A stretch of 40,000 nt of DNA from Caminibacter mediatlanticus TB-2. GTDB taxonomy: Bacteria > Campylobacterota > Campylobacteria > Campylobacterales > Nautiliaceae. Under the pieces are notes generated by a model that ran no database searches, was not told the DNA's origin, and saw only the letters and a list, made by a program, of their open reading frames with translations. Below are positions 12,048 to 28,636 of this stretch, piece after piece (the first letter of the stretch is position 1; every line of letters begins with the position of its first letter). Position numbers and translations under genes: made by a program. The stretch covers positions 1,534,878-1,574,877 of the forward strand of contig NZ_CP040463.1 of NCBI RefSeq assembly GCF_005843985.1, given 5' to 3'.

Positions 12048-12063
12048 TGTCACATTTAAGACA
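12048..12063. promoter_or_regulatory. palindromic operator TGTCACATTTAAGACA (TGTC-N8-GACA), CRP/FNR-type, upstream of wtpA
   Basis: One of three sites sharing TGTCA-N5-AAGACA. The site centre lies 32 bp upstream of the centre of the -10-like TAAAAT (12085-12090) and 62 bp upstream of the ATG. Confidence 0.5.
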
Positions 12064-12117
12064 ATGCTAAATTTAAATAAATCTTAAAATATGCAAAATA
12101 ATCATAAAAGGTAAAAA

Positions 12118-13035
12118 ATGAAAAAGCTAATATTACTTATTTTAATTGCATTAACATTAATTGCAAAAGAAACAATTATTGTATTTCATGCTGGAAGTTT
12201 AAGTGTTCCTTTTTCACAAATTGAAAAAGCATTTGAGAAAAAATATCCAAATTACGATGTAATAAGAGAAGCTGCTGGAAGTAGAGCGTGTGCAAGAAAA
12301 ATAACTGACTTAGGTAAAAAAGCTGATGTAATGGCAAGTGCTGATTATAAAGTAATTGATAATTTATTAATACCTAATTATACTGATAACAACATACTTT
12401 TTGCAACAAATAAAATGGTAATAGCTTATACACCTAATTCAAAATATGCAAATGAAATAAACTCTCAAAATTGGCCTGATATCTTATTAAGAAAAGGAGT
12501 AAAAGTAGGACACTCTAATCCAAATTTAGACCCTTGTGGTTATAGAAGTATATTAGTTACAAAACTTGCTGAAATATATTACCAAAAACCAAATTTTTAT
12601 AATAAATTACTTGGTTACGGAGAATATTATACTAATGGTGAAGAAAACATAGAAAAAATAATAGTTAGACCAAAAGAAACTGACCTTTTAGGATTACTTG
12701 AAAGTGGTGCAATAGATTATTTATATATATATAAATCAGTAGCTAAACAACATAGATTAAAATATATCGAACTTCCAAAACAACTAAACTTAGGAAGTAA
12801 GAAGTATGCAAACTATTACAAACAAGTAAGTTTTAAAATTACAGGTAAAAAACCAGGGACTTTTATAGTAAAAAAAGGTACTCCTATGGTATATGGAATT
12901 ACTGTTTTAAAAAATGCAAAAAAAGGAGCTATTTTATTTACAAAATTTGTCTTATCAAAGTACGGTAGAGATATTATGAAAAAAAATGGTCAAGATGTTA
13001 TATATCCAGCTGAATTAAAAATAGAGCTTAAATAA
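12118..13035 (+). CDS. tungstate/molybdate ABC transporter periplasmic binding protein (WtpA/ModA family)
   Basis: Signal peptide, then VFHAGSLSVPF, ASADY and NLDPCGYRS strings typical of WtpA-type oxyanion binders. Followed by an ATPase and a permease. Confidence 0.75.
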   Translation: MKKLILLILIALTLIAKETIIVFHAGSLSVPFSQIEKAFEKKYPNYDVIREAAGSRACARKITDLGKKADVMASADYKVIDNLLIPNYTDNNILFATNKMVIAYTPNSKYANEINSQNWPDILLRKGVKVGHSNPNLDPCGYRSILVTKLAEIYYQKPNFYNKLLGYGEYYTNGEENIEKIIVRPKETDLLGLLESGAIDYLYIYKSVAKQHRLKYIELPKQLNLGSKKYANYYKQVSFKITGKKPGTFIVKKGTPMVYGITVLKNAKKGAILFTKFVLSKYGRDIMKKNGQDVIYPAELKIELK

Positions 13036-13988
13036 TGCTTGAAATTAAAAATTTATTTTTACAAAAGGGAGATTTTATATTAAATCTCTCTTTAAATTTA
13101 AAAAATGAATATTTTGTTTTACTTGGAAAAACAGGAAGTGGAAAAACTTTACTGCTTGAGAGTATAGCTGGATTTCACAAAATAAAAGGAAAAATTTACT
13201 TTAACAATAAAGATATCACTAACTTACCTCCTGAAAAAAGAGATTTTGGATTTGTTTATCAAGATTTTGCACTTTTTCCTAATATGAATGTTGAAGAAAA
13301 TATAAAATTTAGCGAAAAATTTAAAAAAGTAAAAGATAATTTTAATGAAATCGTAGAATTTTTAGACATCAAACACTTACTTAATAGAAACATCAACAAT
13401 TTAAGTGGTGGAGAAAAACAAAGAGTAGCAATTGCAAGGGCTATTTATTCAAATCCAAAACTTCTTTTGTTAGACGAACCACTAAGTGCAATAGACCCTA
13501 CTTTTAGAAATGAAATTATGAAAAAATTAAAAGAAATTAACAAAAAATACTCTATTCCAATTATTCATGTTACTCACAATTTTAGAGAAGCTTCATACTT
13601 AGCAGATACGCTTGGAATAATTCTAAAAGGAAAACTTTTACAAATAGGAGATGCAAAAGATGTTTTAAAAAATCCAAATTCTATTGAAGTTGCTAAATTC
13701 TTAGGATTTAAAAATATTTTTGAAGTTAGTATGTTAGGATTTAATTCACCTTCTAAATTTTTCTCAATAGACCCAAATGAAATTAACATCTCTTTTAAAA
13801 AAGAAGGAGATTATTGTTTTGAAGGAGTTATTGAAGAGATTATGGGAATAACAGACCATTATAAAATATATGTAAGAGTAAAAGATAAAATATTTTTTGT
13901 GAAATACCCAAAAAGAGAAAATTGGCATTTTAAAGTAAATGATAAAGTTTATCTATGTTTTAATAAAGAAAACATAATTTTTATTTAG
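13035..13988 (+). CDS. ABC transporter ATP-binding protein (Mo/W uptake) with C-terminal TOBE-like tail
   Basis: Walker A GKTGSGKT, signature LSGGEKQR, Walker B LLLDEP. Start overlaps the upstream stop. Confidence 0.85.
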   Translation: MLEIKNLFLQKGDFILNLSLNLKNEYFVLLGKTGSGKTLLLESIAGFHKIKGKIYFNNKDITNLPPEKRDFGFVYQDFALFPNMNVEENIKFSEKFKKVKDNFNEIVEFLDIKHLLNRNINNLSGGEKQRVAIARAIYSNPKLLLLDEPLSAIDPTFRNEIMKKLKEINKKYSIPIIHVTHNFREASYLADTLGIILKGKLLQIGDAKDVLKNPNSIEVAKFLGFKNIFEVSMLGFNSPSKFFSIDPNEINISFKKEGDYCFEGVIEEIMGITDHYKIYVRVKDKIFFVKYPKRENWHFKVNDKVYLCFNKENIIFI

Positions 13989-13996
13989 GAGAGAGA

Positions 13997-14722
13997 ATGA
14001 AAAAGATTTTTTTTATTTTAAGTATTATAATAATCTCATTTTTAAGTTTGCCTATTTTAAAATTAATCTTTAATATTCCAATCTCTACTTATTTAGAAAC
14101 AATAAAAGATAAAGAGGTAATTAGTTCAATAATTCTAACAATGAAAGTATCATTCTTTGCAGTATTATTTGTCCTTTTAACAGGTCTTCCTCTTGCATAT
14201 TTAATTGCAAGATATGAATTTAAAGGTAAAAGCTTGATTGAAAGTATTATAGATATTCCAACAATGATACCACATACAGCAGCTGGTATTGCTTTGCTTT
14301 TTACATTTGGGAAAATTTTCCCAATAATTGATACTACATTTGGAATAATGCTTGCAATGATGTTTCTTTCAGCTCCATATTTAATAAATTCTGCAAAAGA
14401 AGGTTTTAGAAAAGTTGATATTAAACTTGAAAATTCTGCAAGAATTCTTGGGGCAAATCCTTTTTGGACCTTTTTAAAAATCACAATTCCTAATGCAAGA
14501 AAAGATATAGTAAATGGTATGCTTTTAATGTGGGCAAGAGGACTTGGAGAATTTGGAGCAGTAGTAATTATTGCTTATCATCCTATGGTAGCACCTGTTT
14601 TAATTTATGATAGATATACAAGCTTTGGACTTAAATACTCAGCACCAGTTGCTGCTGTAATGATAATAGTATCTATTTTTATATTTATAATCATTAGAAA
14701 AATAAACAATTCTATTAAATAA
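13997..14722 (+). CDS. ABC transporter permease (Mo/W uptake)
   Basis: 241 aa, about 5-6 TM. The EAA-type loop is AKEGFRKVDIKLENSARILGANPFWTFLKITIP. Confidence 0.85.
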   Translation: MKKIFFILSIIIISFLSLPILKLIFNIPISTYLETIKDKEVISSIILTMKVSFFAVLFVLLTGLPLAYLIARYEFKGKSLIESIIDIPTMIPHTAAGIALLFTFGKIFPIIDTTFGIMLAMMFLSAPYLINSAKEGFRKVDIKLENSARILGANPFWTFLKITIPNARKDIVNGMLLMWARGLGEFGAVVIIAYHPMVAPVLIYDRYTSFGLKYSAPVAAVMIIVSIFIFIIIRKINNSIK

Positions 14723-14826
14723 CTTCTATTACAAATCGAAAATTGAAAATGTACAATGAAAAAAATATCGCATTGTTAAGAAATTTTAAATTTTTTAAAA
14801 ATATTCAAACTCATTAGAATTGGTAT

Positions 14827-14865
14827 TAATGCTTTTTAACTTTTGCAAAATAGTAAAAATTTAAA
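14827..14865 (+). repeat. copy 1 of a 39-bp direct repeat flanking focA
   Basis: TAATGCTTTTTAACTTTTGCAAAATAGTAAAAATTTAAA versus 15998..16036 TAATGATTTTTAATTTTTGCTAAATGGTAAAAATTTAAA (35/39 identical). Looser similarity (TATTAAATT..AAAAAG) continues about 40 nt further. Confidence 0.6.
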
Positions 14866-14935
14866 ATATTGTTTTTTATTATTGAATTAATATTAAATTT
14901 TAAAAATGAAAGAGAGAAAGAGAGAATTAATGAGC

Positions 14936-15802
14936 TTAATTATCTAACTCTTTTTTATAAGAATATAATGCCACTATTCCTACAAAAATTAATCCACCAA
15001 CAATATTTCCAAGAGTTACAGGTAACTCATTATTTAATAAAAATGTTTTTATATTAAATGTTTCAAGCTCTTCAACTGGTATATGAAGTGCAGCTGCAGC
15101 TTGTTGAATATCACCACCAAATTGTGCTAAATAATGAGCTTTTGCTAATAATCCTTCACTAATTATAAACATATTAGCAACACAGTGTTCATAACCACTT
15201 GCAACGAATGCTGCAATCAAAAATGCAATTCCCCAAATTTTACCTGCACCATCTTCAGTAGCTACTGCTACCCAAATAGCCATACATACGAAAACGTTAC
15301 AAAATATTCCCCTAATAAATGCTTCTGTGAAAGTTAAATGAGTTTTAACTGCTCCAAGATGAGCAAAATGTTTTAAAATTGCTTCATTATATTTCATAGG
15401 AAGTCCAGATTTATAATAAAGATATGCAATCATAACACCACCTACAAAATTGAAAATCCAAACAACTGTCCAATAAGAAATAACACCATTAAAAATGTTA
15501 ACCTCTTTTCTTGCAAAAGAAACACCACTTAAAATTGAGCTTGTAAATAAATGTCCTCCAAAGAAGACTACCATCATCAATCCGGCTGAGAACGCGAAAC
15601 CACCAATAAAGTTTGCAATACCTGGGGCTAAATTCTTAGCGACTCCAACCGTAGCATGAGCCCAGAAAATATCACCCATTGCAATAGCACCACCTGCCAT
15701 AATAGCAAGCAAAATAACACTAATCAATGGATACTCAGTTTTATGTGCAGACATATGTGAAATTGCATGCACAGTTTCATGAGGTGCTTTAACCATTGCC
15801 AT
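14936..15802 (-). CDS. focA: formate/nitrite transporter family formate channel (FocA/FocB-like)
   Basis: 288 aa, 6 TM. FNT strings GGHLFTS, FCNVFVCMAIW and TLGNIVGGLIF. RBS AGGAG. Lies downstream of the hyf operon, like focB in E. coli. Confidence 0.9.
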   Translation of the reverse strand: MAMVKAPHETVHAISHMSAHKTEYPLISVILLAIMAGGAIAMGDIFWAHATVGVAKNLAPGIANFIGGFAFSAGLMMVVFFGGHLFTSSILSGVSFARKEVNIFNGVISYWTVVWIFNFVGGVMIAYLYYKSGLPMKYNEAILKHFAHLGAVKTHLTFTEAFIRGIFCNVFVCMAIWVAVATEDGAGKIWGIAFLIAAFVASGYEHCVANMFIISEGLLAKAHYLAQFGGDIQQAAAALHIPVEELETFNIKTFLLNNELPVTLGNIVGGLIFVGIVALYSYKKELDN

Positions 15803-15859
15803 TACTACTCCTTTTTTTAAACTTACAATCTAAGTTTAATACTAATAAAAAGAAAAAAA

Positions 15860-15875
15860 TGTCATTTGTAAGACA
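15860..15875. promoter_or_regulatory. palindromic operator TGTCATTTGTAAGACA upstream of focA
   Basis: TGTC-N8-GACA. The centre lies 32 bp from the centre of a -10-like TAAACT (minus strand, 15833-15838) and about 65 bp upstream of the focA ATG. Confidence 0.5.
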
Positions 15876-15997
15876 AATATTAAAATATAGTTAAAAAGTA
15901 AGTATGATTTAAAAATATTACATTAATAAACACAATATTTTTTAAAAATTAAATATAGAAAAACAAAAAAATATTCTTTTTAATATAAACATCAAGC

Positions 15998-16036
15998 TAA
16001 TGATTTTTAATTTTTGCTAAATGGTAAAAATTTAAA
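15998..16036 (+). repeat. copy 2 of the 39-bp direct repeat flanking focA
   Basis: See 14827..14865. Located between the hycI stop and the focA promoter. Confidence 0.6.
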
Positions 16037-16082
16037 CTCTTGGTTAATGATTTATGATTTTATTTTTTATATTAAATTGAAA

Positions 16083-16505
16083 TTAAAAAGAATCATTCAA
16101 TTTATTAAAAGCTTCGTTAAGAGAGTTTAATGCCCTATTAGATACTTCAAAAGTAATTTTTCCAAGATTTTTTTCATCAACTCCTATTCCTAAAAATAAA
16201 ACATTATCACAAAACTCTTTTATAAATTCAATAATAAGATAAAGGGGAATATTATGAGTAGAATATAAATAATTAGCATCTTTTTGAAGAGATAAAAATT
16301 CAGCCCCCTCTATTCCAATAACAGCATCTGCTACTACAACCAAATCAGGAGAGTATTTTTTAAGCTTAAAAACTTCGTCTTCTGGAGTATCATTTCCAAA
16401 AAATACTCTCCAACCTTCTAACTTTTCAATCATCTCTCCAAGTTTTATTGCAACACTATCATCACCTTTTAAAGGATTACCAACTACTAAAAGAGCTTTT
16501 TTCAA
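16083..16505 (-). CDS. hycI: hydrogenase 3/4 large-subunit maturation endopeptidase
   Basis: 140 aa. VVGNPLKGDDSVAIKLG matches the HycI GNxxxGDD motif. Overlaps the upstream gene by 4 nt. Confidence 0.85.
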   Translation of the reverse strand: MKKALLVVGNPLKGDDSVAIKLGEMIEKLEGWRVFFGNDTPEDEVFKLKKYSPDLVVVADAVIGIEGAEFLSLQKDANYLYSTHNIPLYLIIEFIKEFCDNVLFLGIGVDEKNLGKITFEVSNRALNSLNEAFNKLNDSF

Positions 16506-16846
16506 TCTACTTTCCTTAATACAATAAACCCTTCTTTTAAATTCATTAGTAAATTTTTAAACTCACTATCTGCAAGACACTCTAATTTTTTTATATGTTC
16601 AGGAAAAATTTCTACTTCTCCATACTTAAATACATTACCTATTTTAAATTTTGCATATTCACATGAGCGTGATATTATATCTTTTAATTTTTCTTCATCA
16701 ATTTCCATTACACACTCTAAAAAATCAATTTTTCCTACACTTCCATGACCTGTTGTTGTAGAAAAAACTTTTACTTGATTTAATTTTTCATTTTTTAAAT
16801 CACACTTCTCAACATGTCTTCTTGTTAATTTAAAAACTTTAATCAT
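16502..16846 (-). CDS. hyfJ: formate hydrogenlyase maturation protein HycH/HyfJ
   Basis: 114 aa. FSTTTGHGSVGKIDFLE and KYGEVEIF align with E. coli HycH YSLAIGHHLGVIDCLE and KYGEIVID. Confidence 0.7.
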   Translation of the reverse strand: MIKVFKLTRRHVEKCDLKNEKLNQVKVFSTTTGHGSVGKIDFLECVMEIDEEKLKDIISRSCEYAKFKIGNVFKYGEVEIFPEHIKKLECLADSEFKNLLMNLKEGFIVLRKVD

Positions 16847-17681
16847 CTCTCTCCTTTAAAACATCAAAACAAATTTTCTCTCCACTAATTCCAAGTTGGT
16901 CTTTTAAATGTCTTAAATAAACTTCATTATATAAAATAATATAACACTCAGCAAATCTAAAATCAATCTCTTCTTTTACTGCTTTAATAACTGCTTTTTT
17001 TGTATATTCTGGAATTAAAGGATTTTTTGCATTTTTAATAATATCTAAAAATTTTTTGTATAGTTGTTTTCCATATAAATACCCCATAAGTCTTTTTGAT
17101 TCAAAATAAACATCTCTTTCAAATAAAAGATTACCTAAAATTGGTTTTTCAACCTCAGGTGCTTCTCCCTCATCATCTTTATATTCTACTTTTTTCATTT
17201 TTTGGTCAAGTATTCCAAGGGCTACTGCTAATCCATGAATAATAGTTGCTGGATGAGGAGGACATCCTGGAATATACACATCAACTGGAAGAGTAGAATC
17301 AATTCCACTCCATACAGCATAAGAATCATGAAATATTCCTCCTGTACATCCACAAGCACCAACTGCTATAACTACTTTTGGGTCAGGTGTTGCTTCGTAT
17401 GCTCTTAAAAGAGGATAATACATCTGTCTTGTAAGAGGACCTGTACATAATAAAATATCTGCGTGTCTTGGAGATGCTACAAGTTTAAATCCAAATCTTT
17501 CAGGGTCCCACATAGGAGTAATGGCTGCAAAAATTTCAATCTCACATCCATTACAAGAACCACAATCTACTCTAAACACACTAAAACTTCTTTTTATATC
17601 TTTAAGAAGTCTTAATTTATCTTCTAAACTATTATTATCAAAAATATCTTTATCTAAAATTACTTTTGGTTTTTTGCTCAT
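16839..17681 (-). CDS. hyfI: [NiFe] hydrogenase small subunit, NuoB-like (HycG/HyfI)
   Basis: CGSCNGCEIE, VGACGCTGG and IPGCPPHP (ligands of the single proximal 4Fe-4S cluster). Confidence 0.9.
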   Translation of the reverse strand: MSKKPKVILDKDIFDNNSLEDKLRLLKDIKRSFSVFRVDCGSCNGCEIEIFAAITPMWDPERFGFKLVASPRHADILLCTGPLTRQMYYPLLRAYEATPDPKVVIAVGACGCTGGIFHDSYAVWSGIDSTLPVDVYIPGCPPHPATIIHGLAVALGILDQKMKKVEYKDDEGEAPEVEKPILGNLLFERDVYFESKRLMGYLYGKQLYKKFLDIIKNAKNPLIPEYTKKAVIKAVKEEIDFRFAECYIILYNEVYLRHLKDQLGISGEKICFDVLKERDD

Positions 17682-18217
17682 TTGAAACCTCCATATCTCA
17701 CACTTTTTGTGAATTGTTCAACTGCTTGATTTTTTTTGCACTCAGGACAAGTATGAAGTAACTCTATTTTTTCTTCATTCATTACTACTCGTGTTTTTTC
17801 TAATCTCTCAATTACATAATTAATAAGCCTTTTAGTAGTAAATGGTTTATTACAAACTCTACATCTAACAACTTCAAGTTCTCCTATTTGTAATAAGTCT
17901 TCTTTATTAAATCTTACAGAGTTTTCAAATTCTTTTGTTAAATAAATTGCTCCTGTTGGACACACTTCTTCACATCTTGCACAAAAAATACATCTACCAC
18001 AATCAAATTCCCATTTTGATTTATCTTCATCTTTTAAATAACTAACATTAATTGCATTAGGAGGACAAGCAATTGCACAAGCTGCACATCCTATACATTT
18101 TTCATATTCATAATGAGGTTTTCCTCTAAATCCTTCATGAACTTCATAATCTCCAAAAGGATAATCATAAGTTACAATTCCAATTTCTCTTGTAATATCT
18201 AATAGTTTTAAACTCAT
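17678..18217 (-). CDS. hyfH: 2x[4Fe-4S] ferredoxin subunit, NuoI-like (HycF/HyfH)
   Basis: CIGCAACAIACP and CIFCARCEEVCP, plus an extra C-terminal CxxC..CxxC. Confidence 0.9.
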   Translation of the reverse strand: MSLKLLDITREIGIVTYDYPFGDYEVHEGFRGKPHYEYEKCIGCAACAIACPPNAINVSYLKDEDKSKWEFDCGRCIFCARCEEVCPTGAIYLTKEFENSVRFNKEDLLQIGELEVVRCRVCNKPFTTKRLINYVIERLEKTRVVMNEEKIELLHTCPECKKNQAVEQFTKSVRYGGFK

Positions 18218-18226
18218 CTTAAACTC

Positions 18227-19969
18227 CTATTTTTTAAGTGGAGAATTTTTTCTTGTTTTTGCATACTCTTTTAATTCTTTCTCAGTTATTATTTTTGTTT
18301 TTCCTGTCTTTACATCAACTACTGTAATTCTTTCAGTACAAGAATAACACGGATCAAGCGAACATACAATTAAAGCAGCATCTGATATATCATTTCCTCT
18401 AAATTGAAACCTAAGAGATGGCCAATTATTATATGTTGCAGCCCTACATCTCCATCTATATACCTTTTGAGCACTTCCTTGCATTACCCAGTGAATATTC
18501 TCTCCTCTTGGTGCTTCTGTATTCCCAAGAGCAAAATTTCCAGGTTTTATTAAATATTCATCTGGTTTTATAAAAATTGGACCTCCACTCATTAATTCAA
18601 AACATTGTCTAATTATACTAATTGCTTCCATAACTTCTTTATATCTAACTTTTTCTCTTGAAAGGACATCACAACCATACTCAACTGCAACTTCAAATTT
18701 AATCTCATCAAAGACATCAAATGGATGGTCATATCTTGTATCTCTTTTAAATCCACTTCCTCTCATATTTGGACCAACTGGTGAGAAGTCCCTTGCTACT
18801 TTTGGGTCTAACCTTCCAACTCCTCTCCATCTCTCAACTTGGTCATCATCTTCCATAATAGCTTCCCAAGCTTCTTTTAAATATTTCTCAACCTTATTAA
18901 GTAAAACTTTTGCTTCTTTTATTTCAGTTGCTGTAATATCTCTCCTCACTCCTCCGACCATAACATTTCCATAAGTTTTTCTACCACCCGTAATTAATTG
19001 AGCAAGTTCCATTGTATATTCTCTAATTCTAAAAAGATGCATAAATGCTGTAACATTTCCTGTAACTTCACACGCAAGTCCCATATTTAAAAGATGAGAA
19101 TGAAGTCTTTCAAGCTCTAAACATATAACTCTAATAAATTGTGCTCTTCTTGGGACTGGAATATTACTTGCTCTCTCAACTGCTTCAATACAAGCAATTG
19201 CATGATTAAATCCACAAATTCCACAAACCCTCTCAGCTAAAAATCCCATTTGGTCATAATTCATTCTATTTTCAGCTAATTTTTCCATTCCTCTGTGTTG
19301 ATAATATAATCTATAATCTGCATCAATTATAGTTTCACCGTCAACAAATAATCTAAAATGACCTGGTTCGTCACTTGTAATATGAAGTGGTCCCCAAGGT
19401 ACATCAACTACACCATCACCTTCTGGAAATAAAAATGGATAGTCTGGTTCGTCTTCTGGAGCTACTGGGTCTGGACGAAATCTATAATCCATTGCATCTT
19501 TTCTTAGTGGATGTAGATTATCTGGCCAATCATCTGGTAAAACTAATCTTCTTTTATCAGGAAGTCCTTCAGCTACAAGTCCAAACATATCATAAGCTTC
19601 TCTTTCATACCATACAGCTGCTGGGACTTTTGTTGTAACTGATGGATAAGTTGGGTCTGTTTCTGGTATTAATGTTTTTATTGTAATAAAACATTTCTCA
19701 TCTTGTGGCAATTCATCTTCAATCGTCATTTTGCCACCTTCCATTGAAAGAATATAATAAAGTGCATAATGTCCATTCATTTCTCTTTCATCATTAGCTA
19801 TCATACTAACAAGCCATCCACCCATATCATAATAAAGCATTCTTACTGCTTCTACTAAATCACTTCTTGGGACTAAAACAACAACTTGGTCAGGAGTTGA
19901 ATAACTCACATCTAAAACTTTTACTTTTTCTTTTAATTTATTTATAAATTTTTCACCTTTTGCCATCAA
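18227..19969 (-). CDS. hyfG: [NiFe] hydrogenase large subunit, NuoC-NuoD fusion (HycE/HyfG)
   Basis: 580 aa. N-terminal Ni ligands RVCGICGFNH, C-terminal DPCYSCTER followed by a cleavable extension. Confidence 0.92.
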   Translation of the reverse strand: MMAKGEKFINKLKEKVKVLDVSYSTPDQVVVLVPRSDLVEAVRMLYYDMGGWLVSMIANDEREMNGHYALYYILSMEGGKMTIEDELPQDEKCFITIKTLIPETDPTYPSVTTKVPAAVWYEREAYDMFGLVAEGLPDKRRLVLPDDWPDNLHPLRKDAMDYRFRPDPVAPEDEPDYPFLFPEGDGVVDVPWGPLHITSDEPGHFRLFVDGETIIDADYRLYYQHRGMEKLAENRMNYDQMGFLAERVCGICGFNHAIACIEAVERASNIPVPRRAQFIRVICLELERLHSHLLNMGLACEVTGNVTAFMHLFRIREYTMELAQLITGGRKTYGNVMVGGVRRDITATEIKEAKVLLNKVEKYLKEAWEAIMEDDDQVERWRGVGRLDPKVARDFSPVGPNMRGSGFKRDTRYDHPFDVFDEIKFEVAVEYGCDVLSREKVRYKEVMEAISIIRQCFELMSGGPIFIKPDEYLIKPGNFALGNTEAPRGENIHWVMQGSAQKVYRWRCRAATYNNWPSLRFQFRGNDISDAALIVCSLDPCYSCTERITVVDVKTGKTKIITEKELKEYAKTRKNSPLKK

Positions 19970-19976
19970 ATACTCC

Positions 19977-21458
19977 TTAACCTAAAATAATTTTCACTGC
20001 ATTGCTTAAAAGCAAATACCAGCTATCAATTTTATAAACACCAAAGGTAAAAATAAGTATTGCTAATATAATTAAAGGTAAATTAGCACTTGTTTCAACT
20101 TTTTTAGTTTTAACCTCACCTCTTACATTTCCAAAAGCAACTTCATTAAAGTGAGCAAGTACTGCAATAAAGATAATTGCAAGTCCTATAATAAATAAAA
20201 CAATTTGTAAATACTCAGATGTAAAAATACCAGCTTTAATAATTAAAAATTCACTCACAAATACAGCTAAAAGCGGAATACCAATAAGTGAAAAAATTGC
20301 TACTGCAAATAGTGTAGTTACAAGTGGATTTATTTTTACTAATCCTCCCATTTTTTCCATATCTCTTGTGCCATAAATTTTAATTATATTACCACTTGCA
20401 CAAAATGCTAATGCTTTTGAGAGTGAGTGAGCCATAGTATGAAAAAGTGCTGCAAAAACTCCAAGAGGACCACCTACACCAAATCCAACTGCAATAATTC
20501 CAACATGCTCTACTGAATGGTATGCAAACATTCTTTTAATATCTCTTTGTCTTATAATAAATAGTGCTGCAATAAAAATTGAAAGTAATCCAACTACTAA
20601 AAATAGTGTTTCAACATATCCAAATCCAACACTTGAATGTCCAATAATTGAATAATATCTTAAAATAGCAGCAATTGCACATTTAAGTAGTACTGCACTA
20701 AGAATTGCTGATGTTGGTGATGGCCCTTCTGAGTGAACATCAGGAAGCCAAGTATGCATTGGTGCAAGACCAGCTTTTGTCCCAAATCCAATTAATACAA
20801 AAATAAATACTACTTTTAGTGCATCTGGATTTAGTAAATTAGCACTTGCCATTAAATTAGACCAGAACATTGGATTTTCACTATCACCTATTGCATTATA
20901 TCCAGCCCCATACATTAACACTGTTCCATATAATGCAAAAGCAAGCCCTACACTACATATAATAATATATTTCCAACCACTCTCAACAGCTCTTTTATTT
21001 TTATATATTGCCACCATAAATACTGATGAAAGTGTAGTAGCTTCAACAGCAGCCCACATTATTGCAATATTATTTGATACTACTGATAACATCATTGTGA
21101 AAATAAATAGATGCATTAATCCATAATAAAGCTTTACCTCTTTTAAATTTAATTCATTTTTTTGTATATCCCATTTCATATAATTAATTGCATACATATT
21201 TACTAAAAAACCAACAATTGCTATAAGTGTTAAAAACACTCCTGCAATAGGGTCTAAGATTAAATATTTGTGCAATGTAAAATAGATACTACCATCAATT
21301 ACAAATGAAACCACATTTAAAGTCAATACAAGTTCAACTACTGCTAATAGAGCATGTATAGTTGATACAAGCCCAAAGTTTTCTGGTAAAAACCATATTA
21401 CAATTGCTCCAATTAGTGGAATTAGTAGCATTGCAACTATTAATACTCCTACATCCAT
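19977..21458 (-). CDS. hyfF: antiporter-like membrane subunit (NuoM/N-like, HyfF-type)
   Basis: 493 aa polytopic protein. HTWLPDVHSEGPSPTSAILSAVLLK motif. Follows hyfE, as in E. coli hyf. Confidence 0.8.
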   Translation of the reverse strand: MDVGVLIVAMLLIPLIGAIVIWFLPENFGLVSTIHALLAVVELVLTLNVVSFVIDGSIYFTLHKYLILDPIAGVFLTLIAIVGFLVNMYAINYMKWDIQKNELNLKEVKLYYGLMHLFIFTMMLSVVSNNIAIMWAAVEATTLSSVFMVAIYKNKRAVESGWKYIIICSVGLAFALYGTVLMYGAGYNAIGDSENPMFWSNLMASANLLNPDALKVVFIFVLIGFGTKAGLAPMHTWLPDVHSEGPSPTSAILSAVLLKCAIAAILRYYSIIGHSSVGFGYVETLFLVVGLLSIFIAALFIIRQRDIKRMFAYHSVEHVGIIAVGFGVGGPLGVFAALFHTMAHSLSKALAFCASGNIIKIYGTRDMEKMGGLVKINPLVTTLFAVAIFSLIGIPLLAVFVSEFLIIKAGIFTSEYLQIVLFIIGLAIIFIAVLAHFNEVAFGNVRGEVKTKKVETSANLPLIILAILIFTFGVYKIDSWYLLLSNAVKIILG

Positions 21459-21461
21459 TTT

Positions 21462-22115
21462 CTATCCTTTTAAATTAGATGCTTTTGTTACATCTAAACT
21501 TCCAAAGTATTTATAGTATCTCATAGCAAGGATTGACATAATAATTACTGCAAAAATTGCATCTGTTAAAATACCTACATCTACAATCTCAGGAGATTTA
21601 TAAGCCATAAGTGCAAGTGTAAGATGACTTCCATTTTCAAATAGACAAAATGCCATAATTTGTTTTATAATATTTTTTCTTAAAATAAGCCCAAAAATTC
21701 CTATCATAAAAACAGTAATTGAAGCAATTAATGGAATATCTTCTTTTAAAAGAGAAAATTCTTTTAAAATTGGATATAACATCATCGCTGTTGCAAGTGA
21801 AAACGCAATTGCAATAATTGGACTAACAAAAAATCCTTCAACTGGTTCTTCTTCGATAATTACATTTAATTTTCTAATAAGTTTTATTAAAATATATGGG
21901 ACTAATATTACTTTTAAAAAAAATCCAATAATTGCCCATGACATAAGTTCTTGGGCATTATATTTTTGTGCTAATACTGCAAAAATTGTAATTAATAACA
22001 TTGTTTGTATTACATAAATATAAGCAGCTTGTTTTATATTTCTCCACCCAAAAACAGCAAGTGATGTTACAATCATTAATAATGATAATATTGATACTAA
22101 ATCTAATGTAACCAT
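21462..22115 (-). CDS. hyfE: hydrogenase-4 membrane subunit HyfE-like
   Basis: 217 aa, about 7 TM. Its size and its position between the NuoH-like and NuoN-like subunits match HyfE. Confidence 0.7.
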   Translation of the reverse strand: MVTLDLVSILSLLMIVTSLAVFGWRNIKQAAYIYVIQTMLLITIFAVLAQKYNAQELMSWAIIGFFLKVILVPYILIKLIRKLNVIIEEEPVEGFFVSPIIAIAFSLATAMMLYPILKEFSLLKEDIPLIASITVFMIGIFGLILRKNIIKQIMAFCLFENGSHLTLALMAYKSPEIVDVGILTDAIFAVIIMSILAMRYYKYFGSLDVTKASNLKG

Positions 22116-22116
22116 T

Positions 22117-23043
22117 TTACGCTCCTAACACATAAGTTATTACTGCCATAAAAGCAATAACTAATGCAAAATTTGCTTTTCTTTTGAAACTACTAAGCAA
22201 TTTATATCTTGGACCAAAGTTATCAATAAAAACTGCCCCTACATAAAACACACCAGCTTTTATAATGTAAATTAGAAGTGCTAATAAAGGAAATTCAACA
22301 TTCCATGGTTCAAAAATTGATAAAAATAGTCCTATCATTACAAACTGTTTAATAAGCATTGTCATATGAGAAATAGCTAAATCGCTACCGCTATATTCCC
22401 CTAGTACTCCCTCTTGAAGTTCTTGTTCTGCTTCTGCTAAATCATATGGATTTCTTGCCATTTCTACATACATTGCCCAAAGAAATGCAATTGAAGCAAT
22501 TGCAAAAGAAGGATAAATATATCCAATTTGCCAATGTTTTACCATATATTGAATTTCTACTAAATTAGATGTTTTAGCAAGTAACATTACTACTATTAAG
22601 CATAAAACAATTACTGGTTCTACAAAAACACCTATCATTTGCTCTCTACTCCCACCAATTGCAGCAAATGCATTTCCACTATCATTTGATGCAACACCAA
22701 AAATAAATCTAAAAAATGCTCCAAGATATAAAATTACAAATAAATCTGACACAACCCCTGCTTTAAAATCAGTTGCATACGTAATAGGTAACGCTGCAAG
22801 CATTGTTGCAACTACACCAAACATAATATATGGTGCATATTTAAAAACCCAATGAGCATTTTTAGGATATACTCTTCCTCTTTTAAAAAGTTTATATAGG
22901 TCTCTATAAGTTTGGAAAGGGTCAGGTGGACCTTTTCTTGCTTGCATTTTTGCTCTAATCATTCTTGCGACACCATCAAAAAATGGTGCTACCGCAACTA
23001 CCGCTAAAACTTGAACTACCATCCAAAATAATGTTGTACTCAT
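22117..23043 (-). CDS. hyfC: NuoH-like membrane subunit (HycD/HyfC)
   Basis: 308 aa polytopic protein. NuoH/HycD-like loop LAEAEQELQEGVLGEYSG. Confidence 0.85.
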   Translation of the reverse strand: MSTTLFWMVVQVLAVVAVAPFFDGVARMIRAKMQARKGPPDPFQTYRDLYKLFKRGRVYPKNAHWVFKYAPYIMFGVVATMLAALPITYATDFKAGVVSDLFVILYLGAFFRFIFGVASNDSGNAFAAIGGSREQMIGVFVEPVIVLCLIVVMLLAKTSNLVEIQYMVKHWQIGYIYPSFAIASIAFLWAMYVEMARNPYDLAEAEQELQEGVLGEYSGSDLAISHMTMLIKQFVMIGLFLSIFEPWNVEFPLLALLIYIIKAGVFYVGAVFIDNFGPRYKLLSSFKRKANFALVIAFMAVITYVLGA

Positions 23044-23053
23044 AGCTTTCTCC

Positions 23054-25021
23054 TTACACTATAAAGCTAATACCAACAAAAACAAATAAAGCTACTAATA
23101 CATAAAGTACATATAGGTTTGTTTGACCATTTTGTAGTTTTACTGCTTTTGATGAAATATAATCTGTTACTTTAATAAATGGTTCATAAAAAATACTCCA
23201 CCAAATATCTTTTGGATGATTATGATATATAACAGGTTTAAAATAACCTTGGTCTATCACTTTTTTATCTGCTCTATATAGCCAATTCATCACTTTTCTT
23301 AAAGCACCTGTATATGGTGAAGCTGTCATTTGCATTCTACTTGAATATTTAAATCCACAAGCCCAAGGGTCTGCTTCTCTAACATAAACTTTTGCTTTTA
23401 AATTATTTTGAATAATCACTACTAAAATAAATGGAAGTGCAAGTAATGACATCATAATAATTGCAATCATTGGAGTAGAAATCATACTACCAAGTGGACT
23501 AACAATTGCTCCATCCACTACTGCTTTGTATCCTCCACTAAAACTACCAACTACATTCATAATATGCTCAACTACACTGCTTGCTCCAATACCATATGCA
23601 AAACATCCAAGAACTAATAAATACATACCAATAATCATAGTAATAGGAGCTTCTTTTGCTTTTTCAAAAATTTTTTTATTTCTTGGAGTCCCACCAAATA
23701 TCACACTATAAACTTTTACAAAACACATAACAGCAAGTGCACCAACAAGTGCTAATGATACAATTGATAAAGTATATACAAATCTATATAAAATCCCTTC
23801 TCCTAAGGCGGCTTGAAGCATGGATTGATAAGTAATCCATTCACTAACAAATCCATTTAATGGAGGAAGTGCTGTAATTGCCATTGAACCAATTAAAAAT
23901 GCAAATGCAGTATATGGCATTTTTCTTGCAAGTCCACCTAATATTTCCATATCTTTTGTATGAGTTGAGTGAAGAACACTTCCTGCACTTAAAAAGAGAA
24001 GTCCTTTAAATGTTGCGTGGTTTAACACATGATATAGTCCACCTAAAAAACCAACACTTGCAAGTAAAGGATTTTGAGTTGCAATACCATAAACTCCAAC
24101 TCCTATACCAAGTAAAATAATTCCAATATTCTCAACTGAGTGATATGCAAGAAGTGCTTTATAGTCATGTTGTGTTAATGCATATAAAACACCCATTAAT
24201 GCTGAAACAGCTCCAAATATTGTAATCATAATACCCCAACTTGGCATAACTGGAAGCCATAAACAAAACTGAATAATTCCAAAAATCGCAACTTTAATCA
24301 TCACCCCACTCATTAGAGCTGATACATTTGATGGCGCTGCTGGGTGAGCTTTTGGAAGCCATACATGAATTGGAAAAACTCCAGCTTTTGAACCAAAACC
24401 AAAAAATGCAAGTAAAAATACAATTGTTGCAATTGTTGGAGTTAAGTTTGCCATATAAAAATCTTTAAATTCCATACTACCAGCATAATAACTTAAAATT
24501 AAAAATGCAAGTAAAATCATAGCCCCACCAAGATGAGCTATCCCCATATAAATTACAGTAGCTTTTAGCGATTTTTCATCATCGTTAAATACAATTAAAA
24601 AGTAAGAAATAATAGTCATAAGTTCCCAAAACACCATAAACCAAAAAACATTAGCTGCACTTATTACAAGAAGCATTGATAAAATAAATCCACTAAATAA
24701 TGCAGCCATAACTCCTGCATTTGCTTTTTCATTATATTCTTTTGAATAGCTAATTGAATATATTGAAGCTGCAAGTGCAATAAAACTAATTACAAATGAA
24801 AAAAATGCTCTAAGTGGAGTTAATTCAAAATGTGGATTAAATATAAACCCTTCTACATATATTGATGAATTAGATGTCAAATTTACTAAAAAATAAAATA
24901 CACCAACTATTGAAGCAAGAGCAGTCATTGAAAAGCCAACTACTCCTGCAAAATTTTTTTCCTTCATTAATACAAGGGAGGTTATTGATGCTAATAAAAA
25001 AAGTGCATATACCACTTCCAT
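23054..25021 (-). CDS. hyfB: NuoL-like antiporter-type membrane subunit (HycC/HyfB)
   Basis: 655 aa. HVWLPKAHPAAPSNVSALMSGVMIK motif, about 15 TM. Confidence 0.85.
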   Translation of the reverse strand: MEVVYALFLLASITSLVLMKEKNFAGVVGFSMTALASIVGVFYFLVNLTSNSSIYVEGFIFNPHFELTPLRAFFSFVISFIALAASIYSISYSKEYNEKANAGVMAALFSGFILSMLLVISAANVFWFMVFWELMTIISYFLIVFNDDEKSLKATVIYMGIAHLGGAMILLAFLILSYYAGSMEFKDFYMANLTPTIATIVFLLAFFGFGSKAGVFPIHVWLPKAHPAAPSNVSALMSGVMIKVAIFGIIQFCLWLPVMPSWGIMITIFGAVSALMGVLYALTQHDYKALLAYHSVENIGIILLGIGVGVYGIATQNPLLASVGFLGGLYHVLNHATFKGLLFLSAGSVLHSTHTKDMEILGGLARKMPYTAFAFLIGSMAITALPPLNGFVSEWITYQSMLQAALGEGILYRFVYTLSIVSLALVGALAVMCFVKVYSVIFGGTPRNKKIFEKAKEAPITMIIGMYLLVLGCFAYGIGASSVVEHIMNVVGSFSGGYKAVVDGAIVSPLGSMISTPMIAIIMMSLLALPFILVVIIQNNLKAKVYVREADPWACGFKYSSRMQMTASPYTGALRKVMNWLYRADKKVIDQGYFKPVIYHNHPKDIWWSIFYEPFIKVTDYISSKAVKLQNGQTNLYVLYVLVALFVFVGISFIV

Positions 25022-25031
25022 TTTAAATCCT

Positions 25032-25613
25032 TTATGCTTTAATGCATTGAACTAATGCATCAACAGCTTCAGTTGCTTTATTCATTACTAATTGGTCTTG
25101 TTTTTTAGGTTCAAAAAATACTAATGCATCAGTAGGACATACCTCAACACACGCTGGTCCCCCTTCTCTTCCTTTACACAAATCACATTTAACTGCTATT
25201 GTTTTTAAACCTATTGCACTTTCAAGTGTAGGAATTTTTTCAGGTTCTAATCTATAATCCACACTTGGCATTGCTTCTGCTGCTGGTCTTATTGCTCCAA
25301 ATGGACATGCAATTGAGCATAATTTACATCCAATACATATTTCTTCATAAAGTTCAATTTCATCTTCTCCAAATCTTAAAGCTCCCACAGGACAAACATT
25401 TGCACATGGAGCATCATCACACTGTCTACATTGATTTGGCATAACTCCATACATCCCTCTTGTAACAATCAAACGAGGAGTAGCAAGTTTACCCCTCTCA
25501 TATGCTGATTCAAAACACGCCGCCATACATGTTGCACAACCTATACATTTTTCTGGATTTGCAATTACAAATTTATTTTTTTTATTAATTTGCATGACTA
25601 ACTCCTTACACAC
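25032..25613 (-). CDS. hyfA: poly-ferredoxin electron-transfer subunit (HycB/HyfA)
   Basis: 193 aa. CIGCATCMAAC, CRQCDDAPCANVCP, CIGCKLCSIACP and CDLC..CVEVCP. Overlaps the fdhF end by 16 nt. Confidence 0.9.
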   Translation of the reverse strand: MCKELVMQINKKNKFVIANPEKCIGCATCMAACFESAYERGKLATPRLIVTRGMYGVMPNQCRQCDDAPCANVCPVGALRFGEDEIELYEEICIGCKLCSIACPFGAIRPAAEAMPSVDYRLEPEKIPTLESAIGLKTIAVKCDLCKGREGGPACVEVCPTDALVFFEPKKQDQLVMNKATEAVDALVQCIKA

Positions 25614-27829
25614 TTAGCATATTCAGCTTCCATTTGTTGTAGAAGCTCTTTTCTAATTTTTAAAAACTCTTCTTCACTAATTTTTTGAATATTAGCAATT
25701 GACATTTTAAGAGGCGGCGTTTTTGCTAACTTATCAAGTGGTTCTGGTGGAACAAGCTCGTTACCATCTGCTTCTGCATAATGGAATGTTGTAAATATTG
25801 TTCCATATCTCATATCAGGTCTAACAACTGCTTTTGCTGCAATAAGTCCTCTTTTATTCCATACTTTTACATAATCACCTGTCTCAATACCTCTCTCATC
25901 AGCAATATCTTGAGAAATTTCAATAGTAGCTCCCATAATATCAGCACCCATTTCAAGAGGCTTACACTCTCTTGTCATTGTACCTGTATGATAGTGATAA
26001 ACTTTTCTTCCTGTTGTAAACATACAAGGATAAACTTCATTTGGTTTTTCACTTGGAACACCAACTCCAACTAAATAATCATCTGGTGCTCCAATTTTTT
26101 TTCTAAATTCTTCTTCTAAAATATCTCTATCTCCATCCTCACTAAATCCAACTGGTACTAATACAAATTTTCCATCTGGAAGCATTGATTTTTTATCTGC
26201 ATATAAATAAGGAGTTCCTGGATGTTCTTCATCAGGGCATGGCCAATTTATTCCATTAAGTTTTTTTATTCTTTCATAACTTATACCACCAAATTTTGAA
26301 GGACAAACTTTTCTTACTTCATTCCAAATCTCCTCAGCCCTTAGAAAATCAAATCCTTTAAGCCCAATTCTATTTGCAACATTACAAATAACTTTCCAAT
26401 CTGGTTCTAAATTAGCAGGTGGTGTTACTGCAGCTGATAGGTATTGGACTCTTCTTGAAGTATTATTAAATGTACCTTCTTTTTCACTCCAACAAGCAGC
26501 AGGCAATACTACATCTGCTCTTTGAGCAGTTTCTGTTAAGAAAATATCTTGAACTACAATAAAATCAACATGACATAATGCTTCTAAGAAATGATCTGTC
26601 CATGGGTCTGACATAACAGGATTTTCTCCAAAAATGTATAAACATTTAATAAGACCCTCTTCCATTTTATGAGGAACTTCTGTTAATGTCCATCCAGGAT
26701 TTGGATTAATTTTAAAGCCCCAAACACTCTCAACATGTTTTCTATACTCATCATTTGTAAGAGGTCCTCCTGTAAGTGTATTTGGAAGTGCTCCCATATC
26801 ACCTGCACCTTGGACATTATTTTGACCTCTAAGTGGATTAACTCCTCCACCTTTTACTCCAAGGTTTCCTGTAAGAATTGCTAAATTTGACATTTGAAAT
26901 ACTTGATAAGTTCCATAACTAAATTGAGTTACACCCATTGTATAACAAATTGCAGATGGATTTCCTTTTGCATAAAGTTCTGCTGCTTTTTTAATATCCT
27001 CTGCATTTAAATCATACTCTTTTGCAACTCTCTCAGGTGTAAATTCTTCAACTGATTTTTTAAGATATTCAAATCCTTTTGAGTATTTTTCGACAAATTC
27101 TTTATCATAAAGTTCGTTTTTAATAATATGATAAATCATTGCATTAATTACAGGAATATTCCTTCCAACAGGTACAGGAATATAAACATCAGCTTTTTTA
27201 GCCATATCAATTCCACGAGGGTCAATTACAATTAGTTTTGCTCCTCTTTCAAGTCCTCTTTGAATTTGCATTGCAATAATAGGATGACACTCACTCGTAT
27301 TTGTCCCAATAAGTAAAAATACATCAGTATCAGTTGCAAATTCTGCTAAGTCATTTGTCATAGTCCCACTACCAAGTGTTTTAGCCAGACCGGCTACTGT
27401 TGGACCATGTCATAAACGAGCACAATGGTCTATATTATTTGTACCTAAGGCTCTAAAAAATTTTTGAAAAACATAATTATCTTCATTTAAACATCTTGCA
27501 GATGAAAATCCAAAAATTGAATTTGGACCATATTTTTCAACAGATTCTTTAATTTTTGAAGCAACTAAGTTATATGCTTCCTCCCAACTTGCTTCTTCAA
27601 GTTTTCCATCTTTTGAAAATTTACCATCTTTTTTTCTAATTAGAGGTTTTGTAAGTCTTTTTGGAGAGTGAACATATTCCCATCCATACCAACCTTTTAA
27701 ACACAACTCTCCATCATTTACAGGATGATTTGGTGTTGGTTTAGCTTCAACTATCCTTCCATTTTCTACATACAAATCTATATTACAACCAGTCCCACAA
27801 TAAGGACAGACAGTTTGATATTTAGTCAT
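25598..27829 (-). CDS. fdhF: cytoplasmic formate dehydrogenase H, selenocysteine-containing (TGA at 27410..27412, minus strand)
   Basis: ORFs 27410..27829 and 25598..27361 are in one frame: ...[31 protein letters not shown]. N-terminal CPYCGTGC..C cluster and no signal peptide. Sec is residue 140 counted from the Met, as in E. coli FdhH. First gene of the hyf operon. Confidence 0.92.
27372..27409 (-). promoter_or_regulatory. SECIS-like hairpin downstream of the fdhF UGA
   Basis: Minus-strand RNA is UGA CAU GGU CCAACAGU AGCC-GGUCU-GGCU AAAACAC UUGG. Upper stem AGCC/GGCU carries apical loop GGUCU (E. coli fdhF SECIS has a GGUC-type loop). Lower stem is CCAA/UUGG. Confidence 0.65.
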
Positions 27830-27886
27830 GCAGACTCCTTTTTTGATTTTTACATCTAAATCATATATCTTTTAATATTAATTTAA

Positions 27887-27902
27887 TGTCATATAGAAGA
27901 CA
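27887..27902. promoter_or_regulatory. palindromic operator TGTCATATAGAAGACA in the fdhF / crp-fnr divergent region
   Basis: TGTC-N8-GACA. The centre lies 32 bp from the centre of a -10-like TATGAT (minus strand, 27860-27865), about 66 bp upstream of the fdhF ATG and about 100 bp upstream of the regulator ATG. Confidence 0.5.
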
Positions 27903-27994
27903 AAAATAAATGTTCATTTTTTGCATAATTAAAGTTACACTAAAAAAACAATTAAATTAATGTTAACTGAATATAATTAAAAAAAAGGTTTTTA

Positions 27995-28636
27995 ATGAGA
28001 AAAAGTTGTAGATTAAAAATAACATCATTTCCTATTGAAAAAATTGTAAATAAAGAAGACCTTCAAAAATTTCCTAAAATAAATTTTAAAAAAGGAGAAA
28101 TTTACTATCCAGAAGATATAAAATTACTTCTTATTGAAAAAGGAGAAGCAAAAGTTATTTTTGTTCATTCAGATAAAGAGTTTATTTTGTATTATTTAAA
28201 AGAAGGAAATTTTTATGTTATGCATCCTCAAACTTATTTAGAATTTAAAAAAGATTCAACTATCTATTTATTAGACCCAAATCAATTTAACGAATTATAT
28301 CAAAATAAAGACTTTGCTAATGCAATACTTAATAGTTTTACTAAAATAATGATGCTTGAAAAAGAAATAATTAAAGAACTCGCCTTTTATGAATGCGAAC
28401 AAAGAATTGCAAATTTTTTGTTAAACATTACTAAAAATTGCATAAAAGACCAAAATGATAATTATATTTTAAAAAAGAAATTAACAGTTACTGAAATATC
28501 CAATTTTATTGGAGTAAGAAGACAAACAGCTTCAAAAATTTTTAATCAATTTATTGAAGAAGGGATAATTGAAAAAAAAAGAGGAGATTTAATTATTAAA
28601 AATATAAAAAAACTTAAAGAGATTGTAAAAAGTTAG
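27995..28636 (+). CDS. Crp/Fnr-family transcriptional regulator
   Basis: 213 aa. N-terminal cNMP-type beta-barrel region and C-terminal HTH TEISNFIGVRRQTASKIFNQFIEEGII, which aligns with CRP [27 protein letters not shown]. No FNR-type N-terminal Cys cluster. TATAAT at 27972-77. Confidence 0.85.
   Translation: MRKSCRLKITSFPIEKIVNKEDLQKFPKINFKKGEIYYPEDIKLLLIEKGEAKVIFVHSDKEFILYYLKEGNFYVMHPQTYLEFKKDSTIYLLDPNQFNELYQNKDFANAILNSFTKIMMLEKEIIKELAFYECEQRIANFLLNITKNCIKDQNDNYILKKKLTVTEISNFIGVRRQTASKIFNQFIEEGIIEKKRGDLIIKNIKKLKEIVKS

Follow-up and report, generated by a model that had tools for sequence, protein, structure and literature searches.

The locus described here raises a question of regulation: which protein reads the three similar 16-bp dyads that precede a formate hydrogenlyase operon, a formate channel gene and a tungstate/molybdate transporter operon, and to what effect? 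The dyads (boxes 1–3) lie in a stretch of 40,000 nucleotides of Caminibacter mediatlanticus TB-2 (contig NZ_CP040463.1, positions 1,534,878 to 1,574,877), called the window throughout. On comparative evidence, it appears likely that they are operators of the CRP/FNR-family protein encoded next to box 3, a relative of the carbon monoxide (CO)-responsive regulator CooA, which would act as a class II activator of fdhF-hyf, focA, wtpABC and its own gene.

Three dyads in promoter regions of the window

The pattern TGTC-N8-GACA, searched for on both strands, has exactly three matches in the window: box 1 at wtpA, box 2 at focA and box 3 between fdhF and the divergent regulator gene (Table 1), with sequences and coordinates precisely as in the initial annotation. 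In 100 dinucleotide shuffles, the window-wide mean was 0.17 and the maximum one, in line with the earlier rough estimate of fewer than one occurrence per 40 kb, and no shuffle reached three. A gene map built from open reading frames (ORFs) and family searches leaves 2,396 bp, or 6.0% of the window, as intergenic DNA. All three boxes lie there, in promoter regions, where 0.007–0.008 matches are expected, while the coding DNA of the window holds none (0.26 expected). Coding DNA and shuffled sequence, the two backgrounds that the initial annotation had proposed for comparison, thus both fall short of the observed count. Three of the four intergenic TGTC tetramers stand inside the boxes, which are identical to each other at 12 of 16 positions rather than the 11 counted earlier, since T also occupies position 8 of each. 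The looser 11-base pattern TGTCA-N5-AAGACA, allowed two mismatches, is not enriched in the window (13 found versus 17 expected), so the signal sits in the exact, G/C-containing TGTC and GACA arms.

The placement of the boxes is uniform. At wtpA, focA and fdhF, a −10-like hexamer lies 32 bp from the box, centre to centre, and the distance from box centre to ATG is 62.5, 65.5 and 65.5 bp, respectively, so that the spacing described earlier (32 bp to the hexamer, 62–66 bp to the ATG) holds. Because transcription is assumed to begin ~7 nt past the hexamer, the box centre would fall at about −41.5, the class II position. Taken alone, the 21-nt spacing of the window boxes is weak evidence in DNA of 28% GC, where a TAnnnT hexamer is found at a spacer of 20–22 nt for 14.5% of random intergenic positions in the window. 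Over the target promoters of fdhF, focA, wtpA and fdhD in the window and its relatives, such a hexamer is present 20–22 nt from the box in 12 of 12 cases, at exactly 21 nt in 11 of them.

Conservation of the boxes in relatives

Homologues of the regulator were collected as only eight further cluster representatives among 5.8 billion protein clusters, at 37–48% identity. Their loci are metagenomic contigs, two of which carry a taxon label (Campylobacterales and Nautiliales). A scan of genome contigs for the regulator gave two true relatives; the other five matches, Acidobacteriota or unclassified Crp proteins at 17–23% identity, were set aside. Each homologous locus has a box just 5' of its regulator gene, and the boxes fall into eight distinct sequence types (Table 1). 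In L001, L009–11 and L014–16, the regulator gene lies behind a wtp-type transporter instead of facing fdhF, and the box is still there, from which it follows that box and regulator gene move together; in L010 and L014, where the promoter serves the regulator gene only, a perfect TATAAT is found 21 nt from the box. The constant presence of the box at the regulator gene implies autoregulation, and in comparative work it is the usual ground on which an operator is attributed to a factor.

Target promoters keep the boxes as well, an outcome that the initial annotation had named as a check. At fdhF, a box occupies the same place between this gene and the regulator gene in L002, L008, L012, L017 and L018. 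The hexamer lies exactly 21 nt away in the first four of these (TATTAT in L002, TATCAT in both L008 and L012, TATAAT in L017), and in the three loci with a called fdhF start (L008, L012, L017), the ATG lies 56–57 nt from the box, like that of the window. At focA, two loci encoding FocA proteins 74–78% identical to that of the window (L019 and L020) have the boxes TGTCTTTTATGAGACA and TGTCTTTTATATGACA, each 21 nt from a TAAACT identical to the window hexamer. In L019, the distance from box to ATG is 57 nt, equal to that in the window; the focA gene of a more distant member of the Nautiliaceae (L021) has no box upstream. A survey of wtpA covering 80 loci and 380 kb gave seven exact TGTC-N8-GACA matches, three in promoters and four in coding DNA, the latter being near chance (~3 expected, by our own base-composition estimate). 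The box TGTCATATATAAGACA precedes wtpA by 58 nt in L024 and TGTCATATATATGACA lies 5' of wtpA in L025, both with TAAAAT at the spacing seen in the window, and in L045 the box TGTCATAAATATGACA (positions 17–32) stands 20 nt before a TATAAT that belongs to an operon of fdhD, a modE-like gene and wtpA.

TGTC-N8-GACA arms are carried by the three boxes of the window and by 11 sites of relatives, while three sites begin with CGTC instead. These sites point to a conserved core of TGTCW-N6-WGACA with an A/T-rich centre. The operator had first been written as TGTCA-N5-AAGACA; its outer arms are kept in relatives, whereas the asymmetric AAGACA arm is one of two tolerated variants and specific to the window lineage, the orientation relative to the promoter not being fixed.

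Several weaker sequences were found beside these boxes. A consensus scan of the window at up to two mismatches returned three intergenic candidates, at 4607–4622, 31970–31985 and 39340–39355. The second, AGTTACACAAATGACA, a half-box whose single perfect arm is TGACA, lies ~42 bp 5' of the selenocysteine tRNA (tRNA-Sec) gene selC and 22 nt from a TAAAAT; it was rejected as a probable chance match, there being no counterpart upstream of selC in L002 or L010. The first, TGTAATATAATTTACA, between fdhD and the ORF at 4638, keeps the symmetry and has lost both G/C arm positions; it is kept as a candidate solely in view of the true fdhD box of L045. The promoter of the respiratory fdhA operon (7386–7650) contains no box at up to two mismatches. 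In L008 (9881–9896) and L012 (9322–9337), a second box with one mismatch, TGTCACTAAAATGATA, overlaps the predicted fdhF −10; it has no equivalent in the window, L002 or L017, and could be a repressing site or a −10 region that resembles a half-site.

A different repeat surrounds box 1. The sequence ATATGCAAA flanks the box on both sides (12037–12045 and 12089–12097), and its second copy overlaps the predicted wtpA −10 (TAAAATATGCAAAAT). The same repeat, as ATATGCAAAAAAAGCATAAAAAAATATGCAAA, is kept 5' of wtpA in many relatives (L023, L024, L026–L028, L031), including those that have no CooA-like box, and probably serves as operator for the ModE-like protein encoded at 3066–3785 on the minus strand. 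If so, wtpA would be under dual control, by metal repression and by CooA-like activation.

The regulator, its relatives and its signal

The regulator gene encodes a protein in which Pfam recognizes only the helix-turn-helix (HTH) region (HTH_Crp_2, E 2.6e-15), and no NCBIfam model that would name it reaches its cut-off, all scoring far below (the CRP model gives 33.5 bits against a cut-off of 266). Searched against all PDB sequences, a profile of the regulator family finds the CooA proteins of Carboxydothermus hydrogenoformans (E 9e-33) and Rhodospirillum rubrum (E 4e-26) first, followed by CprK (E 6e-14), CRP (E 4e-10), NtcA (E 3e-9) and FNR (E 0.05). An AlphaFold2 model with a mean predicted local distance difference test score (pLDDT) of 80.8 comprises a beta-roll, a helix at residues 105–146 and the HTH, which is the CRP/FNR fold; with this model, Foldseek ranks the CooA structures 1ft9 and 2fmy first, with the E-values of CprK close behind. 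All nine members of the family, and likewise both CooAs, carry the recognition helix R176-Q177-T178-x-S180...N184; the CRP counterpart is R-E-T-V-G-R. Across the wider clade, R176 and S180 never change, Q177 is almost constant and T178 is variable. An eight-residue gap opposite GELGLFEE, the phosphate-binding cassette of CRP, is likewise common to the family and both CooAs; removal of the segment around residues 72–82 of CRP is listed as a prerequisite for haem binding by CooA (PMC12937710).

In their arms and spacing, the boxes match what is known of CooA sites. The CooA operator TGTCGGCnnGCCGACA, found in Desulfovibrio and R. rubrum, is of the TGTC-N8-GACA type (PMC545781), and TGTCA-N6-C/TGACA has been described as almost the same as the CooA motif of R. 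rubrum (PMC4705688). With an RQTxS helix like that of CooA in the adjacent regulator, the boxes have the arms and spacing expected for such a protein. The position of CooA sites at −43.5 and residue Gln178 belong to the general background and are not used as evidence here. An assignment to FNR was rejected, as only Cys5 and Cys134 are conserved and the [4Fe-4S]-ligating set of three N-terminal Cys and a central Cys is missing, the box is not TTGAT-N4-ATCAA, and the FNR match is that marginal. CRP was rejected because the cassette (Gly71, Glu72, Arg82, Ser83) is deleted, Gln and Ser replace the Glu and Gly of its helix, and the CRP model score is so far under its cut-off. The protein is best described, from its sequence and modelled structure, as a member of a CooA-like sister lineage that is not to be filed as a CooA. 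The initial annotation had named an adjacent Crp/Fnr regulator; the family and fold stand, and the subfamily is neither FNR nor CRP.

The computed comparisons establish that the boxes exist, exceed chance, are conserved and accompany the regulator gene, and that the regulator is a relative of CooA. From them we infer binding of the regulator to the boxes, activation rather than repression, the transcription starts and the extent of the operons. A dimer would bind TGTCW-N6-WGACA through the RQTxS recognition helix, centred ~41.5 bp upstream of the predicted starts, and from this class II position would activate fdhF-hyf (formate hydrogenlyase), focA and wtpABC. On the shared box 3, it would also activate the regulator's own gene and perhaps selAB. 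The result would be a compact regulon that joins the enzyme, the formate channel and the tungsten/molybdenum supply of a selenocysteine-containing formate hydrogenlyase; it probably takes in the regulator gene itself, possibly selAB and, in one relative, fdhD. The earlier proposal of a single regulon under the adjacent regulator gains support on two counts: the box follows the regulator gene in every homologous locus, and the recognition helix is of the type found in the CRP/FNR subfamily whose known box is TGTC-N8-GACA.

Some observations weigh against this picture. Only about nine close homologues are available, mostly on metagenomic contigs, and the conservation sample is therefore small and partly non-independent. 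The placement at −41.5 depends on predicted −10 hexamers in DNA of 28% GC, and a generic sigma-70 promoter scan stays at background in such AT-rich DNA, which makes it uninformative. At wtpA, L023 and L026–28 lack a box even though their WtpA proteins are 71–79% identical to that of the window; from this, membership of wtpA in the regulon would be lineage-specific.

The signal is a separate matter, and is probably something other than the classical His-ligated haem/CO switch of CooA, because the ligand His is not conserved in the clade. His77 of the window regulator stands at the exact column of His77 in R. rubrum CooA and His82 in C. hydrogenoformans CooA (ChCooA). It is present in the window protein and P0002–6 and replaced by Tyr in P0007–9, one of which (P0009) is encoded opposite fdhF-hyf in L017. 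Searched exhaustively with a profile, 1.84 billion representatives gave only 14 clusters at E 1e-30 or better, and 283 at E below 1e-10. In the 12 next relatives aligned (P0126–P0138), the His is absent, while P0139–P0144, the closest aligners to ChCooA and presumably true CooAs, each have THT at this column.

A true CO sensor, carrying haem on His77 and switching on formate hydrogenlyase, FocA and tungstate uptake in response to CO rather than to formate or redox state, is on these data unlikely; it would concern the His-bearing subgroup, to which the window protein belongs. Such a sensor would account for the context of His77 (YVMH, compared with FCMH and FCTH in the CooAs), for the CooA-type cassette deletion and for an N-terminal tail as long as that of ChCooA (Cys5-Arg6 against Met5-Arg6), modelled at a pLDDT below 50 over residues 1–6. 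In CooA, the N-terminal residue (Pro2, by its alpha-amine) extends to the haem of the partner subunit as distal ligand. CooA proteins also control energy-converting hydrogenases (PMC545781, PMC6557876), a class to which Hyf is related. The distribution of the His speaks against it, as do the invariant polar residues Asn104 and Asn109 on the C-helix of the close family and the lack of a CO dehydrogenase gene (cooS) in the window and in the homologous loci L001–L018. The columns of Asn104 and Asn109 are those that we take to line the haem pocket of CooA.

A tentative account, plausible though short of probable, is that the regulator belongs to a sister clade of CooA that kept the DNA-reading head and class II activation, lost the His-haem/CO switch, and responds to another signal in coordinating a selenocysteine- and tungsten-dependent formate hydrogenlyase. 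Cys5 and Cys134 are invariant in the close family and not kept in the wider clade, and one may speculate about formate, redox state or, through this Cys pair, selenium status as the signal. The regulator gene always lies among selenium genes (window 27995–36122; L008–L016), namely selA, selB, tRNA-Sec, selU, yedF (TusA-DsrE), TusA-MerT, HMA, DsrE and selD. A selenium or tungsten link would thus be speculation suggested by the gene neighbourhood and not by the boxes, which sit at formate and tungstate genes.

Repression by the same regulator, which would block the region 5' of the −10 and leave the regulon on when the DNA is released, is improbable. CRP/FNR proteins can repress. In Campylobacterota, promoters have little need of a −35 hexamer, so that a dimer bound at −33 to −50 could obstruct polymerase, and the second box over the fdhF −10 in L008 and L012 would suit such a role. 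The strict 21-nt spacing in unrelated promoters is, however, a signature of class II activation and not of occlusion, and the second box is missing from the window and two other loci, as noted above. CprK is an activator, which we also count against repression. [quoted passage not shown]

It is more improbable still, on an analysis covering the window and the homologous loci, that the boxes are real and bound by a factor encoded elsewhere in the genome, the adjacency being a coincidence. Unrelated CRP-family proteins do share the motif, as exemplified by the mycobacterial Cmr with TGTCA-N6-C/TGACA (PMC4705688), yet the box lies directly 5' of the regulator gene in all homologous loci, across 36–48% identity and two gene neighbourhoods, and the regulator has a CooA recognition helix suited to it. 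Chance palindrome-like sequences without function can practically be set aside: although the intergenic DNA of the window is 79% A+T and −10-like hexamers are frequent in it, three boxes were observed there against ~0.008 expected, their conserved positions are the G and C ones, and the sites are kept at orthologous promoters of diverged relatives whose flanks differ. Compared with activation by the adjacent regulator, repression, another factor and chance each fit the 21-nt phasing and the co-occurrence of regulator gene and box less well.

Gene neighbourhood and known systems

Table 1. Boxes, predicted promoter elements and genes of the window, with the regulator-gene boxes of homologous loci.
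Feature	Location	Strand	Sequence or remark
Box 1, wtpA promoter	12048..12063	neutral	TGTCACATTTAAGACA
Box 2, focA promoter	15860..15875	neutral	TGTCATTTGTAAGACA
Box 3, common to the divergent fdhF-hyf and regulator promoters	27887..27902	neutral	TGTCATATAGAAGACA
Predicted −10 of wtpA	12085..12090	+	TAAAAT; 21 nt 3' of box 1; box centre ~−41.5
Predicted −10 of focA	15833..15838	-	TAAACT; 21 nt from box 2
Predicted −10 of fdhF	27860..27865	-	TATGAT; 21 nt from box 3
Candidate −10 of regulator gene	27924..27929	+	CATAAT; 21 nt from box 3, other side
Respiratory fdhA	7651-10470	+	in-frame TGA, QARI-U-HSAT
Terminator-like hairpin and T-run	11999-12026		ends respiratory formate dehydrogenase operon; box 1 directly after
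wtpA and ABC ATPase-permease genes	12118..14722	+	tungstate/molybdate ABC transporter
focA	14936..15802	-	formate/nitrite transporter family
hyf-like group-4 [NiFe] hydrogenase genes, hycH, hycI	16083..25613	-	formate hydrogenlyase operon; downstream of fdhF
fdhF	25598..27829	-	cytoplasmic-type formate dehydrogenase; in-frame TGA, Sec140, CARL-U-HGPT
Regulator gene	27995..28636	+	CooA-like, CRP/FNR family, 213 aa; divergent from fdhF
selA and selB	28692..31831	+	directly downstream of regulator gene
tRNA-Sec (selC)	31837-31930	-	Rfam
selD	about 35086-36122	+	in-frame TGA, AAG-U-AGKL
Regulator-gene box, L001, L009-11			TGTCATTTACATGACA
Regulator-gene box, L014-16			TGTCACATATATGACA
Regulator-gene box, L002			TGTCATATAAAAGACA
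Regulator-gene box, L018			TGTCATTTAAATGACA
Regulator-gene box, L008			CGTCAGCTATATGACA
Regulator-gene box, L012, L013			CGTCAGCTAAGTGACA
Regulator-gene box, L017			CGTCGTTTAAATGACA

The genes around the boxes had been named correctly in the initial annotation. WtpA exceeds the NCBI equivalog cut-offs (NF003196, 399.7 bits; TIGR03730, 351 bits), and FocA, the selenocysteine-containing FdhF, the hyf-like genes and the regulator with its Crp-like HTH are confirmed. The window is a formate/selenium/tungsten island, which also contains fdhD, a ModE-like gene, a second selenocysteine-containing formate dehydrogenase gene (fdhA) with fdhB and fdhC, selA, selB and tRNA-Sec, in addition to yedF, TusA-MerT, an HMA protein, DsrE and a selenocysteine-containing selD. 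Hyf-type complexes and formate dehydrogenases dependent on selenocysteine and tungsten are common in Campylobacterota. No terminator was detected between the regulator gene and selA, and the order regulator-selA-selB also occurs in L002, as judged there from ORF sizes only; co-transcription of selAB with the regulator gene is possible.

Further observations concern the genes and spacers themselves. In-frame TGA selenocysteine codons interrupt three window genes, fdhF, fdhA and selD, each of which is split in two in ORF lists. A small unlisted ORF at 7449–7640 (+), just 5' of fdhA, begins with the twin-arginine-like signal MKRRSFLKKALGFGALAAS... and is probably a small partner of the respiratory formate dehydrogenase with a twin-arginine translocation (Tat) signal. 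Between the end of hycI and box 2 lies an unusually long (~200 bp) and very A/T-rich spacer (15876–16082), which has no Rfam match at gathering thresholds. Rfam finds no riboswitch in the promoters that carry the boxes, tRNA-Sec being its sole match.

In the full-text literature searched, whose coverage of subscription journals is slight, no paper was found that joins CooA with Campylobacterota, and queries for CooA with formate hydrogenlyase, or for formate hydrogenlyase regulators with Nautilia, returned unrelated papers only. The locus offers a compact regulator-operator pair, one 213-residue protein and three 16-bp sites, with a predicted regulon that joins enzyme, substrate channel and metal supply. 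The CooA DNA-binding module would here be reused outside CO metabolism, and homology alone is then no ground for calling such proteins, or TGTC-N8-GACA boxes, CO-responsive. The pair may also provide a natural model for the way in which effector specificity shifts on the CRP/FNR scaffold. Were the account of a sister clade with a non-CO signal true, the regulator would bring an effector specificity new to the CRP/FNR family and would be the first bacterial regulator of formate hydrogenlyase described outside the FhlA paradigm, and the synthesis of formate hydrogenlyase, formate transport, tungstate uptake and possibly selenocysteine insertion would be coordinated in vent Campylobacterota.

Regulation of formate hydrogenlyase is known mainly through sigma-54 and FhlA in enterobacteria. 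As in the FhlA/formate regulon of E. coli, formate hydrogenlyase would here be co-regulated with its formate dehydrogenase and accessory genes. FhlA, however, is a sigma-54 enhancer-binding protein acting on upstream activating sequences, whereas the predicted activator of the window is of the CRP/FNR type and acts from a class II position; by reading of the sequence, no sigma-54 type promoter (GG-N10-GC) overlaps boxes 1–3. Class II CRP/FNR-dependent promoters, with a site near −41.5, share with all the target promoters examined the 32 bp from box to −10, centre to centre, and the spacer of 20–22 nt, the starts being predicted here. They differ in that box 3 seemingly serves two divergent promoters, of fdhF and the regulator gene, at an equal distance on each side. 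In E. coli, the malX-malI region similarly shares one CRP site between divergent promoters.

Among individual regulators, Cmr (Rv1675c) of Mycobacterium tuberculosis recognizes nearly the same box, as defined by a consensus from footprints and systematic evolution of ligands by exponential enrichment (SELEX) (PMC4705688). It belongs to an unrelated lineage and regulon, and has Pro at the position of CRP Glu181 (PMC4705688), where the window regulator has Gln as in CooA. CprK of Desulfitobacterium is the second-best relative in both structure and sequence, and the Cys5/Cys134 pair of the close family could act like the Cys pair of CprK, although the wider clade does not keep Cys5 and Cys134. 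In CprK, an N-terminal Cys forms an inhibitory disulfide with a Cys of the DNA-binding domain, the effector is a chlorophenol and the box is TTAAT-N4-ATTAA.

CooA itself is the closest parallel. It is the best match in sequence and structure and shares with the window regulator the R-Q-T-x-S helix, the cassette deletion, the 16-bp operator geometry and the TGTC...GACA arms, as well as a site that immediately precedes the core promoter of an operon for an energy-converting, membrane-bound [NiFe] hydrogenase; the energy-converting class that CooA controls has the Hyf-type hydrogenases among its relatives. The two differ in that identity is only ~27%, the predicted targets are fdhF-hyf, focA and wtpA instead of CO dehydrogenase and Coo hydrogenase, and the inner box is A/T-rich (TGTCWtatawWGACA) where that of CooA has GGC/GCC. 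The proximal His is not clade-wide here, and the invariant Cys5 and Cys134 of the close family are not found in CooA. The regulator architecture, the box and the activation geometry are thus known ones, and what would be new is a different regulon and, probably, a different signal.

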